Positions 30,060-55,071 of a DNA stretch of 64,000 nucleotides are shown piece by piece. Each line of letters begins with the position of its first letter. Within the stretch, counting starts at the first letter, position 1. The notes beneath the pieces are model-generated. The model made no database searches, had not been told where the DNA came from, and worked only from the letters and a program-made list of their open reading frames with translations. Source of the DNA: Escherichia phage KarlGJung; sequence record MZ501089; one strand, written 5' to 3'. A program made the translations under genes and the position numbers.

Positions 30060-30317
30060 TTATTTTAAAACTTCTGCATAATCACATGTTACAAACTGTT
30101 TCTCTAGCTTAACGATCTTACGAAAATACCTTTTACACTGACGAATCTGCCGCTTCGTAGGACGTACAGCAAACTTAATAAATTCCACTCGACCAGATGG
30201 AGGACTTTCTTCTGGTGGAATATCTAATACCAATTCCCACGTATCTGCAATAAGTGCTTTGAATTGTGTATTTTTCCTGACGTTATACGGAGTAGGTTTA
30301 AATAAAACAATATGCAT
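30060..30317 (-). CDS. Hypothetical protein, 85 aa (61.4 position)
   Basis: Track ORF. Confidence 0.45.
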   Translation of the reverse strand: MHIVLFKPTPYNVRKNTQFKALIADTWELVLDIPPEESPPSGRVEFIKFAVRPTKRQIRQCKRYFRKIVKLEKQFVTCDYAEVLK

Positions 30318-51064: not shown

Positions 51065-51535
51065 TTAATCATGTTTCCACACCCCATCGGTATTTGACCA
51101 AAGTCGCTGATTATCTGATCCTCGCCACAGCTTTTTAGTCGGAAGATTTTTCTCATACTTCCCATCAATAATAACATCAACATATTTAAGCATTTCTAGT
51201 TGTTTAATATCTTCAAACTTATATCCTGTCCATAACCAAATGCTTTTATTGGGATAAAGATTTTTTACTGTTTGAACAATGCAATGAATAACATCTCGAT
51301 TATCCGGATAGAGAGGGTCTCCTCCAGTTATAGTCAATCCTTCTATATAATCATTATTCAAACATTCAATTAATTGTTCTAGTGTTTCACCAGTGAATGG
51401 AATACCATTTCTAGCATTCCATGTTGATTTATTATAACACCCTTCGCATTTATGCAAACAACCTGTAACGAAAAGAACGACCCTGCAACCAGGGCCATTC
51501 ACAAAATCGCAAGGATAAAATCTATCATAATTCAT
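51065..51535 (-). CDS. nrdG: Anaerobic ribonucleotide reductase activating protein NrdG (radical SAM)
   Basis: 156 aa MNYDRFYPCDFVNGPGCRVVLFVTGCLHKCEGCYN; ATGA overlap with nrdD stop. Confidence 0.85.
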   Translation of the reverse strand: MNYDRFYPCDFVNGPGCRVVLFVTGCLHKCEGCYNKSTWNARNGIPFTGETLEQLIECLNNDYIEGLTITGGDPLYPDNRDVIHCIVQTVKNLYPNKSIWLWTGYKFEDIKQLEMLKYVDVIIDGKYEKNLPTKKLWRGSDNQRLWSNTDGVWKHD

Positions 51536-53349
51536 TGATGCTTAACCCTATGCATGATTTCTTTATTTTTGCCGAGATTAAATCCACGTTCGTTCGGATT
51601 TCCCAAATAACCACATGTTCTTCTTATTGTGTTCATCTTTTTAGGATCAGTTTCTCCACAAATAGAACAAACAAATCCGTTTTCAGTAGGAGTCATTTCA
51701 TGGGTACTTCCACATGTAAAACATTTATCTACTGGCATATTAACACCAAAATAATCTAAATGTTGTGCAGCATAATCCCATACGGCCTCAAGACCCTTTA
51801 AGTTATTTTTCATATCAGGAAGTTCAACATAAGAAATGTGACCACCTGTCGCAATGAAATGATATGGCGCTTCACGAGAAATCTTTTCAAACGGAGTAAT
51901 ATTTTCTTCTACTGAAACGTGGAAACTGTTAGTGTACCAGCCTTTATCGGTAACATCTTTTACACTTCCATATTTTTCTGTATCAAGTTTACAGAAGCGA
52001 TAACAAAGGTTTTCAGCAGGAGTCGAATATAAACTAAAAGCAAATCCAGTTCTTTCAGTCCACTGTTTAAGATGAGCATTCATCTTAGTTAAAATTTCTT
52101 GTCCAATATCACGACCTACAAGAATATTCAATTCGTGAATACCAATGTATCCTAGAGACACTGAACTTCTGCCATTTTTAAATAACTCAATTATATCGTC
52201 ATCAGGTTTAAGACGAACCCCGAATGCACCTTCTTGGTAAAGAATAGGAGCAACAGTCGCTTTAACTCCTTTTAAGGAACTAATTCTACACATCAATGCT
52301 TCAAAACATAAATCCATTCGTTCATTGAACAATTCAACAAATTTCTGTTCATTGAATTGTGTTCCAATATAAGAATCTAACGCGATACGAGGAAGATTCA
52401 GTGTTACAACACCGAGATTATTACGTCCATCAAGAATTTCATTGCCAGTCGAATCTTTCCATACGCCCAAGAAACTACGACAACCCATTGGAGAAACAGG
52501 AATAGATGAGCCGGTGATAGCTTTATTGTTCTTAGCTGAAATAATGTCAGGATACATCCTTTTGCTTGCGCACTCTAGAGCAAGCTGCTTAATATCATAG
52601 TTCGGATCGTCTTTATAAAGATTAACACCTTCTTCAACGAACATAACAAGCTTAGGGAAAATAGGAGTTATCCCATCACGACCAAGACCTTTAATACGAT
52701 TTTTCAGAATTGCTTTCTGAATCATTCGTTCAGTCCAGTCAGTTCCCGTACCAAATGTAATTGTTACAAAAGGAGTCTGTCCGTTTGAACTAAAGAGAGT
52801 ATTTACTTCATATTCATAAGCTTGGAATGCATCGTATACGTCTTTTTCTGTTTTAGATTGAGCATAATTCAACGCATCGGCGATTTGCCATTTTTCTGCA
52901 TCCTCAATATGTTTTGCATAGGTGCGTTTAACATAAGGAGAAAGTACTTTATCTACATTCGCAAAAGTCGTTCCGCCGTATTGGTGAGAAGCAACCTGTG
53001 CGGTAATTTGTGCCATAATTGCAGTAGCAACACCGATTGATTTAGGAGTTTCAATCTGTGCATTACCAAGCTTAAATCCATTCTCAAGCATTCCTTTTAA
53101 ATCTACTAAACAACAATTAGTAAATGGAAGAGCAGGGGAATAATCAATATCGTGGAAATGGATAATTCCGCTTTCATGCGCTTTCATAATAAAAGACGGG
53201 ACCATATTTTTGGCAATGTGTTTAGACACAATACCAGCCATAAGGTCCCGTTGAGTTGGAAAAACACGAGAATCTTTATTAGCATTCTCGTTTAAAAGGT
53301 CTTTATTAGTTTTATGAATCAATCCTTCAATTTCTTTTTCAATTGTCAT
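51532..53349 (-). CDS. nrdD: Anaerobic ribonucleoside-triphosphate reductase NrdD (uninterrupted)
   Basis: 605 aa continuous ORF; C-terminal zinc ribbon CFTCGSTHE...CSICGE and glycyl-radical motif RTCGYLG. Confidence 0.9.
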   Translation of the reverse strand: MTIEKEIEGLIHKTNKDLLNENANKDSRVFPTQRDLMAGIVSKHIAKNMVPSFIMKAHESGIIHFHDIDYSPALPFTNCCLVDLKGMLENGFKLGNAQIETPKSIGVATAIMAQITAQVASHQYGGTTFANVDKVLSPYVKRTYAKHIEDAEKWQIADALNYAQSKTEKDVYDAFQAYEYEVNTLFSSNGQTPFVTITFGTGTDWTERMIQKAILKNRIKGLGRDGITPIFPKLVMFVEEGVNLYKDDPNYDIKQLALECASKRMYPDIISAKNNKAITGSSIPVSPMGCRSFLGVWKDSTGNEILDGRNNLGVVTLNLPRIALDSYIGTQFNEQKFVELFNERMDLCFEALMCRISSLKGVKATVAPILYQEGAFGVRLKPDDDIIELFKNGRSSVSLGYIGIHELNILVGRDIGQEILTKMNAHLKQWTERTGFAFSLYSTPAENLCYRFCKLDTEKYGSVKDVTDKGWYTNSFHVSVEENITPFEKISREAPYHFIATGGHISYVELPDMKNNLKGLEAVWDYAAQHLDYFGVNMPVDKCFTCGSTHEMTPTENGFVCSICGETDPKKMNTIRRTCGYLGNPNERGFNLGKNKEIMHRVKHQ

Positions 53350-53819
53350 TTTAAACTCTTTCTAAGCTGCTTCTTGAATGAAGCTATTAATTGTGTTTTG
53401 GTGTCAGATTCATTATATTCAAATCCTCTTTGAAGCATCTCGGCCATCATTTCCTCTTTTCCTAAACGAGAAAATTCCTTTGATTTATCTCCAACAAAGT
53501 TAGGGTGAATATTATTTTGGGTGTAATCGGATTTTAAATAAGTAAGTAAATTTTCTAACCATTCAAGATAATCAACACCTTGTCCCTTTAAGCCAGAACG
53601 ATTAAATTTATGCTTCATTTGACCTTCTGCGGCATTGCATAGATTACAAAGCAATCCACGTACCTTTCCTGCTTTTGGTCCATTTAATTCATGGTCATGA
53701 TCAAGATGATTAGCTTGAACATCAGGATTTAGTTCTCGTTGGCAAATTAAGCATTTACCGTTTTGTGCATTATAAAATTTTTGTTTTTCTTCTTTGTATA
53801 ATTTGCCAGTCAATAACAT
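53346..53819 (-). CDS. 49: Endonuclease VII gp49 (Holliday junction resolvase)
   Basis: 157 aa MLLTGKLYKEEKQKFYNAQNGKCLICQRELNPDVQANHLDHDHELNGPKAGKVRGLLCNLCN... Confidence 0.85.
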   Translation of the reverse strand: MLLTGKLYKEEKQKFYNAQNGKCLICQRELNPDVQANHLDHDHELNGPKAGKVRGLLCNLCNAAEGQMKHKFNRSGLKGQGVDYLEWLENLLTYLKSDYTQNNIHPNFVGDKSKEFSRLGKEEMMAEMLQRGFEYNESDTKTQLIASFKKQLRKSLK

Positions 53820-53861
53820 AATAAAACCCTTACCTTAAATAGATAAGGGTATTTATTATTT

Positions 53862-54038
53862 TTAAGTATTGTAAAACATTCGATGCAATCGTTTATACTG
53901 TCGAATCATCTTTTTAGTAGGACGAGAATAAGTTCCTACGCAAGTGGTCATATGAGGGTCCGTAGAATGTCCTTTAATAAAAAGTTTCCAAACCTTACCG
54001 CCATTTAACTTTTCAGTATAAACCAATTCGGTTTTCAT
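53862..54038 (-). CDS. Hypothetical 58 aa protein whose C-terminus duplicates that of the next ORF (below track cutoff)
   Basis: Hand-translated MKTELVYTEKLNGGKVWKLFIKGHSTDPHMTTCVGTYSRPTKKMIRQYKRLHRMFYNT. Confidence 0.3.
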   Translation of the reverse strand: MKTELVYTEKLNGGKVWKLFIKGHSTDPHMTTCVGTYSRPTKKMIRQYKRLHRMFYNT

Positions 54039-54074
54039 TAAAATGTCCTGTCAGAAAAAGAATTTTGAGTTTTT

Positions 54075-54578
54075 TCAAGTATTATAAAACATTTGATGCA
54101 ATCGCTTATATTGCCGAATCTTTTGGTCAGAAAAAGAAATTTGAGTTTCAAGCCATTCAATGTACTCTGCGGCAGCTTGCATCAGGTTACCTTCATAGCC
54201 ATCGTTATTTTCTTGTGCAGCTAATTTAGCTAATGCGTATGAAATACGTTCACCTTGAAAACCGGCTTTAGGCTTCTGAACAACTTGATTAGTTCGCTCT
54301 ACAACTTCTTCAATTTCGCCATTTTCGACTGATTCAGTATTCCACAAGCACCAATACGTAATTGGCTTATCGTAGATGTTAATAATCTTTCCGTCGGAAA
54401 GTTCAATTTCAATAATTCCAGTGTCAGGCTCTATATCATCTTCACATTCTTTTACAAGTTCACGAACTTTAAAGACAGTACCTGCACTAAGTTCCGGCCA
54501 GTAATTACATAGCCCTGTATCAACACGATTAATTCTAAACCACTTATCTACTGTAATCATGTCCCATCTCCATATCAA
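54075..54578 (-). CDS. Hypothetical protein, 167 aa (49-nrdC interval; start uncertain)
   Basis: Track ORF; C-terminus KIRQYKRLHQMFYNT. Confidence 0.4.
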   Translation of the reverse strand: MIWRWDMITVDKWFRINRVDTGLCNYWPELSAGTVFKVRELVKECEDDIEPDTGIIEIELSDGKIINIYDKPITYWCLWNTESVENGEIEEVVERTNQVVQKPKAGFQGERISYALAKLAAQENNDGYEGNLMQAAAEYIEWLETQISFSDQKIRQYKRLHQMFYNT

Positions 54579-54855
54579 TTAAGTCATTTATCGTTGGTTC
54601 ATTATATACTGTTTCTTCATCAGTGTAAACCGGTTCTTCCGGCTCTGGCTCTACAGTTTCCCATCTAGCCGCCCACCAAGGTTTAACCCCGAAGCTTATT
54701 AAGTTCTTCATAATCAATCCAGGATTCTAATCCTGATGGCAAATCAGATTCAATTTCCCAAAGAAGCTCTTCAATTTTCTGAAGACGATCTAGTTCTTCG
54801 GCTGGAATAGTAACCATTGACGGAGCTCGTGATACATTAATATCGTAAATCATAT

Positions 54856-55071
54856 TTACCCCAATTTAACCATACAATCGCCGTATTTCCACTTAGAAAT
54901 AGACTTTTCACCATTAGAATAATAAACTTCGAGTTTAGCACGATTATTTTTAATTTGAATAACCTTGGCTGTCATCAAAGTTCCATACCCATAATAAACT
55001 GCAACTTCATCACCTACATATACCGCGCTTCCGCGGTAATCATGAATATAGTCAGTTCCTTCGAGCATCAT
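54856..55071 (-). CDS. Hypothetical protein, 71 aa
   Basis: Track ORF. Confidence 0.4.
   Translation of the reverse strand: MMLEGTDYIHDYRGSAVYVGDEVAVYYGYGTLMTAKVIQIKNNRAKLEVYYSNGEKSISKWKYGDCMVKLG

Follow-up and report, generated by a model that had tools for sequence, protein, structure and literature searches.

The window analysed here is a stretch of 64,000 nucleotides (nt) of Escherichia phage KarlGJung (MZ501089), and the element under study is the interval between two of its minus-strand genes, pin, which encodes the Lon inhibitor PinA, and gene 49. An open reading frame (ORF) of 58 codons, designated ORF58, is located between them, and the products of pin and ORF58 end in nearly the same 15 amino acids (aa). 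As judged from comparison with other lineages, this tail is native to the DUF7279 (TifA) family, to which ORF58 belongs, and was acquired by pin. On the same comparisons, the 161-aa PinA of phage T4 is a chimera composed of pin residues 1-146 and ORF58 residues 44-58. The arrangement of the window is probably explained by a deletion that fused pin to the tail, followed by the joining of two allele types, with direct repeats left as footprints of these events. The segment is of the Tequatrovirus (T4-like) type, and over this region its identity is 99.9% with Yersinia phage PYPS2T and 98% with RB32.

The shared tails correspond to a direct repeat, Y, whose copies (53862-53910 and 54075-54123) are identical at 41 of 49 positions in an ungapped alignment. 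The next-best match of the 49-mer over both strands of the window reaches 27 positions, and none of 200 randomised versions of the window (first-order Markov) gave more than 33. A second direct repeat, X (54050-54072 and 54126-54148), is identical at 22 of 23 positions, compared with 17 for the next-best real match and a maximum of 20 in 200 randomised windows. Repeat search extended Y to 63 nt at 81% identity; the 14-17 nt added past the stop codons are mere AT-rich resemblance. Both repeats had been located to within a few bases in a preliminary description of this DNA (about 45 nt at 54077-54120 and 53864-53910, and a second pair near 54048-54072 and 54123-54147). The near-identical peptide ends that it reported are also recovered in both translations, as QKIRQYKRLHQMFYNT (pin) and KKMIRQYKRLHRMFYNT (ORF58), each followed by stop. 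Its '167 aa ORF' is a mechanical minus-strand ORF opened by a TTG, and the annotated pin extends from the ATG at 54560 over 161 codons. The regional AT-richness is all that speaks for an assembly artefact or a chance match, and the probability of such an origin is negligible. The randomisation maxima (33/49 and 20/23) are exceeded by both repeats, whose identity is therefore better than the AT-rich background. The same arrangement, at 98-100% identity, is also found in the independently sequenced RB32, RB33, PYPS2T, YUEEL01, SG1 and others; by an extrapolated estimate, well over 100 independent Tequatrovirus genomes, sequenced in many laboratories, carry it. An assembly artefact can be excluded without recourse to reads because the arrangement recurs in many independent phages. 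In RB32, the two copies of X (X1 in pin, X2 ahead of ORF58) show no mismatch over the 23 positions. Along the minus strand, the pin core is followed successively by X1, Y1, X2, the N-terminal part of ORF58 (43 codons), Y2, the gene 49 leader and gene 49.

The pin product matches PF10465 with 160.5 bits (gathering cut-off 27) over residues 4-141, and the 146-position profile phrog_2167 covers residues 1-146. Residues 147-161 match positions 44-58 of phrog_3272, which is the PHROG of ORF58. The protein closely resembles PinA of T4, which inhibits the ATP-dependent protease Lon (work cited in PMC8835725): both have 161 aa and the same fused C-terminus, and the two pin cores share 425 of 438 nt (about 97%). 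The PinA family (PF10465), in contrast, ends some 13-15 residues earlier than this T4-type protein, whose last 15 residues are DUF7279-derived. The native family C-terminus, Y-I-x-x-L-E-x-Q-x-x-F-S-D-[RK]-x-F, is not present in the translated pin of the window, which diverges after D145/Q146 into the DUF7279 helix; the native end persists only as the untranslated X2. T4 has no ORF58, and its pin ends in ETQISFSD-RMIQQYKRLHQMFYNT and stop, with gene 49 following 41 nt later. In the structure model of pin, the tail has a pLDDT of about 50 and is predicted as a mere extension of the last helix. Y1 displays one or two differences in 45 nt with the ORF58 tail of phage HMD-9, in which pin has kept its native end. 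Among pins that are themselves 90-98% identical, the tails vary at DUF7279-invariant sites (R46Q, H52N, R53Q) and the changes are mostly non-synonymous. The tail reads DQKIRQ in the window and DRMIQQ in T4, the intermediate DQMIRQ being the largest cluster. Two independent Tequatrovirus fusions, one giving DRMIQQ and the other DQKIRQ through GAT-GAT slippage, were considered and set aside as unnecessary rather than refuted, since DQMIRQ connects both tails by single substitutions and one event suffices.

ORF58 scores 62.7 bits with the DUF7279 model PF23945 (gathering cut-off 24.5, E = 3e-17, residues 7-56, tail included) and matches phrog_3272 with E = 3e-34. Pairwise ratios of non-synonymous to synonymous substitution rates (dN/dS) across three genera are 0.10-0.45 for the N-terminal part and 0.05-0.20 for the tail. 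Because of these low values, ORF58 is considered to be a real gene under purifying selection with the tail as its most constrained part. In 10 members of the ORF58 family, R39, P40, T41, K42, I45, R46, K49, R50, H52 and R53 are invariant and K43 is nearly so. A wide protein search with ORF58 returned 10 matches by word index, and a HMMER comparison to 1.8 billion representatives returned nine at E up to 0.001, of which only three at E up to 1e-10; the subfamily proper appears narrow.

The naming of ORF58 relies on a second DUF7279 gene of the window. A six-frame search with ORF58-family proteins retrieved a distant paralogue of 85 aa at 30060-30317 (minus strand), which scores 71.5 bits with DUF7279, shares the RPTKRQIRQCKR motif and is the homologue of T4 gene 61.4 (tifA), downstream of dmd. 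The product of gene 61.4, TifA, inhibits ToxN, the endoribonuclease that belongs to the toxIN defence system (PMC9391042). TifA is composed of a three-stranded sheet and an RNA-binding basic helix capped by Pro-Thr, and the substitutions P53A/T54A or K55A/R56A/R59A abolish both RNA binding and ToxN inhibition (PMC10853763). Alignment of the ORF58 family to the TifA homologue of the window with hhalign superimposes ORF58 15-56 on TifA 25-69 (probability 81%, E = 1.2e-5) and places P40, T41, K42, K43 and R46 on P53, T54, K55, R56 and R59. The segment R39-P40-T41-K42-K43-x-I45-R46 is thereby aligned with R52-P53-T54-K55-R56-x-I58-R59, and the Pro-Thr helix cap and adjoining basic cluster (PMC10853763) are both found in ORF58. 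From a shallow alignment, AlphaFold2 predicts for ORF58 the beta-beta-beta-alpha order of TifA, with strands at 2-9, 15-22 and 31-37 and a C-terminal helix at 42-56, but only the best of five models is confident (pLDDT 81.7, the others 50-57). Both proteins are small, phage-encoded and above the DUF7279 gathering score, and the variable region of each is a loop ahead of the last strand. By this analogy, repeat Y is the distal two-thirds of a TifA-type RNA-binding helix. ORF58 most likely acts as TifA does, namely as a small RNA-binding protein that would neutralise a ToxN-like RNase toxin, the variable loop setting the target.

The loop of TifA has been proposed to set toxin specificity, and the allelic differences of ORF58 cluster in the corresponding predicted loop. 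Compared with the A-type alleles defined below, ORF58 of the window differs mostly within this loop (53924-53968, codons 24-38), at positions 24, 25 and 29: the window reads GHSTDPHM and the A-type alleles GSPTDPNM or GNSTDPNM. A few differences fall just past the loop, namely V34I (HY01, Aplg8) and T36I (ZCEC14).

The ownership of the tail could be established from the neighbours of gene 49 in other phages. ORF58 homologues located upstream of gene 49 in RB69 (Mosigvirus) and in VR5, MX01 and ABTNLS3 (Dhakavirus) keep the tail in the form RPTKKMIRQ[YF]KR[LF]HRxFYN, and Dhakavirus-type homologues that retain it are also found in loci of the IMG/VR database. The pin located beside these homologues does not carry it and ends in YIEYLERRLS or in WLEAQLRFSDKAF, each followed by stop, the latter with the same TAATG overlap; these ends are summarised as LERRLS or FSD[KE]AF. 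The comparison of pin ends was extended to 44 IMG/VR loci taken through gene 49, among which no tail was found on pin outside Tequatrovirus, most of them ending in FSDRAF and stop directly before the gene 49 leader. Pins of at least eight further T4-like lineages end in FSDRAF, FNSRKF or similar and adjoin that leader as well, and within the genus native pins of many Tequatroviruses end in WLETQxSFSDRAF and stop, without tail. The tail is read as an acquisition by pin because it lies inside the DUF7279 model, recurs in the unlinked TifA and is kept where the neighbouring pin is without it, and because the pin profiles stop at 141-146.

The preliminary description had proposed the opposite direction, in which a local copy of the 3' end of pin would have become the C-terminus of a small ORF, either new or of unrelated descent. 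This was a natural first guess, since in the window alone pin is long and named and ORF58 is short and unannotated, and GenBank notes on RB32 and Aplg8 also call the small ORF 'similar to ... pin'. It is nevertheless highly unlikely: besides the DUF7279 model, the unlinked paralogue and the tailed homologues just mentioned, the tail is absent from native pins of the genus and from all other genera sampled, and it is the most constrained part of ORF58, with R46, H52 and R53 varying in the pin tails. The direction has consequently to be reversed, and nothing has been 'recoded' either, as Y1 and Y2 are read in one frame as the same helix.

Four alleles of the interval coexist in Tequatrovirus. 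Allele A, known from HY01, Aplg8, HMD-9 and ZCEC14, consists of a native 148-aa pin and ORF58; its pin ends in ETQ(I/N)SFSDRAF, and the TAA stop overlaps the ATG of an intact ORF58. Allele B, found in T4, Shinka and loci L014-L018, contains the fused 161-aa pin only. Allele C associates the fused pin with a relic of the native end and with ORF58 (window, RB32, SG1 and L017). Allele D, represented by GiZh, retains the native 148-aa pin only; ORF58 is missing and the deletion joint lies between gttttaAT and gttttacaAT. In a joint alignment of the four, C is longer than A by 76 nt and longer than B by 213 nt, and A is longer than B by 137 nt. The preliminary description had suggested a tandem duplication or recombination scar; the second term is substantiated by these lengths, as a repeat-flanked segment of 213 nt is without counterpart in T4 and 76 nt are without counterpart in A-type phages.

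The origin of the window can be summarised as follows, the order of events and the exact crossover point being those that we infer from the alignments. Allele A would be ancestral, with the native pin stop overlapping the ORF58 start (TAATG). A deletion of 137 nt, from pin codon 147 to ORF58 codon 43, would have fused pin residue 146 in frame to ORF58 residue 44 with loss of ORF58, yielding allele B. Allele C would then result from the joining of a T4-like left half carrying the fused pin to a ZCEC14-like A-type right half carrying X2, ORF58 and the leader. The joint would be located at the A-run beside a CTTGAAA heptamer present in both parents just past the pin stop codon. Most likely, two phages infecting the same cell would have undergone unequal or illegitimate crossing-over, driven by microhomology. 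Y would then be two copies of a single helix-coding segment, and X two copies of a single pin end, one still translated and the other left as an untranslated relic. Subsequent crossovers between Y1 and Y2 would produce allele B, and those between X1 and X2 allele A.

Identity with ZCEC14 is about 98% over X2, ORF58 and the leader, and the body of pin is closest to T4; because the two halves have different closest relatives, the window is interpreted as the junction of a left half of T4 type with a right half of ZCEC14 type. The nature of X2 is apparent from its translation in the old pin frame, K-T-Q-N-S-F-S-D-R-T-F-stop, whose TAA overlaps the start codon of ORF58. A single nucleotide distinguishes X2 from the pin end still in use in ZCEC14 (gaa act caa aat tct ttt tct gac agg gca ttt taATG), where the matching bases encode ETQNSFSDRAF and stop, and X2 is homologous to the Dhakavirus pin end AQLRFSDKAF, which displays the TAATG overlap as well. 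X2 now supplies AGGA at 54046-54049, 7 nt ahead of the ORF58 ATG. The idea that this motif is a Shine-Dalgarno gain compensating for lost translational coupling was considered and rejected, since the 'agg' is an Arg codon of the live pin end in ZCEC14 and Dhakavirus has 'aag g'. The single mismatch between X1 and X2 (att vs aat, Ile vs Asn) was similarly discarded as a marker of two parental alleles, X1 of RB32 also reading aat.

Recombination of this type has been documented in T4, which forms segmental duplications and deletions at microhomologies of 6-10 bp within a few passages (Srikant et al. 2022, PMC9391042). Short direct repeats are likewise present at the segment ends here, namely CTTGAAA in the window, ACGTTT in a Mosigvirus-like locus described below (L059) and GTTTTA(C)AAT in GiZh. 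The products are head-to-tail repeats or in-frame fusions, and a TifA-family gene is involved in both cases. The window alleles differ in being natural and fixed with one extra copy, instead of laboratory amplifications, and in a joint that contains six A's and not three.

A number of observations weigh against these interpretations. The heptamer CTTGAAA is present at both parental breakpoint sites, but the joint reads CTTGAAAAAACTC and is not a clean single copy, with six A's where a crossover in CTTGAAA would leave three. Had a pin allele with one more AAA codon served as parent, the joint would be a clean product of an 8-nt microhomology; no such allele was found in IMG/VR or among GenBank phages. 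Allele C could also be older than B, and it is only through DQMIRQ that we infer a single fusion for the pin tails of the window and T4. The abundances of the alleles (roughly 120 for C, 70 for A, 250 for B and 70 for D in some 550 records) are estimates obtained by sampling BLAST rankings at even intervals and are not a full census. Concerning the relationship to TifA, ORF58 is modelled with confidence in only one of the five AlphaFold2 models, and Foldseek, run with this model on the PDB, retrieved nothing at E < 0.1. ORF58 has 58 aa vs 85 aa, a much shorter loop and no extension past the helix, and belongs to PHROG 3272 vs 2375. Its locus differs too: ORF58 is located between pin and gene 49 instead of in the dmd-adjacent 'anti-TA (toxin-antitoxin) island', a position typical of TifA which is not family-defining.

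A different order of events was also weighed. A tandem duplication of the unit formed by pin end, ORF58 and tail would have occurred in allele A, deletion of the first ORF58 body would have produced C, and B and some A alleles would have been derived later from C. Tandem duplications flanked by microhomology arise readily in T4, and CTTGAAA flanks exactly the duplicated unit in A-type genomes. Crossovers between Y1 and Y2 would also fit the tails of L014-L018, which are of B type, identical to Y1 of SG1 and placed directly ahead of the gene 49 leader, as well as the tail of Shinka, a mosaic of the T4 junction and the Y2 variant of the window; the identity of X1 and X2 in RB32 also speaks for this order. 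This order nevertheless demands two rare events before any selectable product is obtained, and the distinct closest relatives of the left (T4) and right (ZCEC14) halves are a better fit to a phage cross, although later recombination could mimic it; we regard it as rather unlikely.

The probability is lower still for ORF58 being a mobile cassette of the PeSL type, of which a mini-circle [X2, ORF58, Y] would have recombined homologously with the only Y copy in a genome of T4 type. Integration through Y would yield the observed topology X1-Y1-[X2-N-Y2]. Excision and re-insertion of ORFans between flanking repeats has a precedent in T4-type phages, in which mini-circles were physically detected (Arbiol et al. 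2010, PMC2839356). The resemblance to PeSL shuffling (Arbiol et al. 2010; Comeau et al. 2014) resides in a small accessory ORF flanked by repeats and present or absent among close relatives, whose gain and loss are alike accounted for by recombination between these repeats. The repeats of the window are, however, protein-coding and not made of promoter and stem-loop cassettes. ORF58 occupies the same position in three genera and looks resident, and a circle junction is unobservable in sequence data alone. Classification of the repeats as PeSL cassettes, which calls for a strong sigma-70-type early promoter and a terminator stem-loop in each repeat, was rejected, as such a promoter is absent in or beside either copy and the lone hairpin is found after Y2. 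Mobility through a homing endonuclease or an intron is not indicated either, the insert containing only the 58-aa DUF7279 ORF and no Rfam match above threshold. Deletion and fusion of pin, followed by joining of A and B types, is retained as the best explanation.

Fusions and exchanges of the same tails were encountered in other phages. In the Mosigvirus-like L059 (Logan SRR20302901 contig, 1201-1626, protein P0047), pin is fused to the last nine codons of an ORF087c-type DUF7279 gene. The protein reads YIEYLERR joined to FHRDFYNVY and stop, with an ACGTTT microhomology at the joint, and the event is independent of the Tequatrovirus fusion. In L026 (IMGVR_UViG_2974739009_000001, about 1264-1461), also Mosigvirus-like, pin is absent and the RB69ORF089c-type paralogue ends with the tail of the downstream paralogue (HRNFY joined to NVY and stop). 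In RB69-type phages, pin lies between two DUF7279 paralogues, and this sequence indicates that a crossover joining their tails probably deleted it here. Such in-frame tail fusions may be recurrent because the loss of ORF58 by deletion would be viable only if pin stays undamaged and the gene 49 leader is not reached. Two further cases were noted. P0046, a single ENA member of 191 aa, is an RB69ORF089c-type DUF7279 protein that continues in frame into the start of pin (RNFYRGYD-MNISDTRGKWF); the fusion, which would fit a missing base where stop and start overlap, could be real or a sequencing error. In L023, an IMG/VR locus with a 150-aa pin, the ORF just upstream of gene 49 (about 1380-1470) ends in PTKPTKAQIRRRKKWTRESWLYN and stop, which looks like a more divergent DUF7279-type basic tail in another lineage.

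The tail of pin is most likely a tolerated passenger, its neutrality being suggested by what was captured. The fused piece starts at M44 of ORF58 and is without the Pro-Thr cap and the equivalents of K55/R56; PinA of T4 also lacks the equivalent of R59. Because the cap and the first basic residues are missing, the tail is considered as a passenger and not as a working RNA-binding module. An adaptive capture, selected for because it would have given PinA a new activity such as RNA or toxin binding, is unlikely. The fused 161-aa form is far commoner in protein databases than the native 148-aa form (657 vs 44 cluster members), its reading frame is open in hundreds of genomes, and a second, independent fusion exists in Mosigvirus, all of which could be expected from selection. 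The abundance may, however, reflect the sampling of T4-like laboratory and therapy phages, and the fusion is the expected viable result of deletions sparing pin and the gene 49 leader. In addition to the missing cap and residues, the mostly non-synonymous changes of the pin tails fall at DUF7279-invariant positions. Tail-less native pins also persist in the genus, and D-type phages are devoid of both tail and ORF58.

The features of the locus are collected in the following table. All are on the minus strand, as are the genes located farther out on the pin side, namely 49.1, two small ORFs and nrdC.

Table 1. Coordinates of the pin-gene 49 interval and adjoining features in the window.
Feature	Position	Strand	Description
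nrdD	51532-53349	minus	single unbroken 605-aa ORF
gene 49 (endonuclease VII)	53346-53819	minus	essential downstream gene; bounds the variable interval
gene 49 leader	53820-53861	minus	holds AATAAATA and a 10-bp hairpin
Y2	53862-53909	minus	ORF58 codons 44-58 and stop; peptide MIRQYKRLHRMFYNT, then stop
ORF58	53862-54038	minus	intact 58-aa DUF7279 (TifA-family) gene; PF23945, phrog_3272
ORF58 codons 1-43	53910-54038	minus	predicted three-stranded sheet and variable loop
X2	54039-54074	minus	36-nt untranslated relic of the native pin 3' end, now the ORF58 leader
Y1	54075-54122	minus	pin codons 147-161 and TGA stop; KIRQYKRLHQMFYNT, then stop; putative distal DUF7279/TifA-type basic helix, in frame
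pin (annotated)	54075-54560	minus	161 aa, ATG at 54560; same length as T4
pin core	54123-54560	minus	codons 1-146, ending in EYIEWLETQISFSD-Q; PinA / Inhibitor_I24, host Lon protease inhibitor
X1	54126-54148	minus	pin codons ETQISFSD, where the native core ends; 23-nt repeat copy

The nrdD gene of T4 is split by a group I intron carrying I-TevII. The leader of gene 49, which presumably has the regulatory role described in published work on T4 gene 49, is unchanged in alleles A, B, C and D. Its motif at 53850-53857 resembles a T4 late promoter, and the 10-bp hairpin (53826-53850, -18.2 kcal/mol, z = -3.2) is terminator-like and covers the ribosome-binding site of gene 49. This hairpin is found 3' of Y2 only and never of Y1, and the spacer between Y1 and X2 is without fold (-1.3 kcal/mol, z = +1.65). 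A scan of 53300-54800 with Rfam produced only sub-threshold matches over the gene 49 hairpin (best 26.5 bits vs 50), and the locus does not correspond to a known RNA element. No promoter of the sigma-70 type was found in or beside the X and Y repeats, and X2 contains neither a hairpin nor a promoter. A strong promoter-like site of this type is present in 49.1 at 54601-54629 (minus strand; TTTACA, 17 nt, TATAAT, 11/12 matches), about 40 nt upstream of the pin start, and could serve pin and ORF58 as an early promoter.

Two genes upstream of pin, a 56-aa ORF (54683-54853, minus strand) matches phrog_3402, 'antitoxin from a toxin-antitoxin system', with E = 3e-40. Together with a 71-aa ORF (54856-55071), it replaces in the window the genes 49.2 and 49.3 of T4. 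The interval containing pin, the TifA-like ORF58 and the phrog_3402 gene may represent a small anti-TA islet. More speculatively, and with little likelihood, the pin-gene 49 interval would be a second anti-TA islet of T-even phages in which ORF58 targets an RNase toxin other than that of TifA and the helix fused to PinA is functional. If so, the helix might for instance anchor PinA on RNA, on ribosomes or on a toxin complex, and PinA would be a two-module counter-defence protein.

GenBank annotators had described the small ORF as 'similar to RB69ORF087c ... pin' in 2006. In the papers that could be searched, no mention of DUF7279 or RB69ORF087c was found in the context of pin or TifA, and a term search of the TifA paper (PMC10853763) retrieved neither the paralogues nor pin. 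No description of a foreign origin of the PinA C-terminus was found in the searchable literature, whose coverage is incomplete and does not extend to the 1988 pin paper. Novelty appears to lie in placing ORF58 among the TifA paralogues and in recognising the PinA C-terminus as chimeric; the processes and families concerned are already known. Current views are not overturned, and the locus is a tidy case rather than a new principle.

The PinA used in Lon biochemistry (UniProt P07068, 161 aa) thus ends in 15 residues foreign to its family, which is relevant to the mapping of the Lon-binding surface and to structures of the complex, and the natural 148-aa pins constitute a ready-made control for such work. 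The locus also offers a natural case of microhomology recombination yielding fusions, relics and new leaders, its four alleles being joined by simple repeat-mediated steps. Many T-even phages, therapy candidates included, carry in ORF58 a second TifA-family gene whose loop varies by allele and which is a candidate counter-defence gene.

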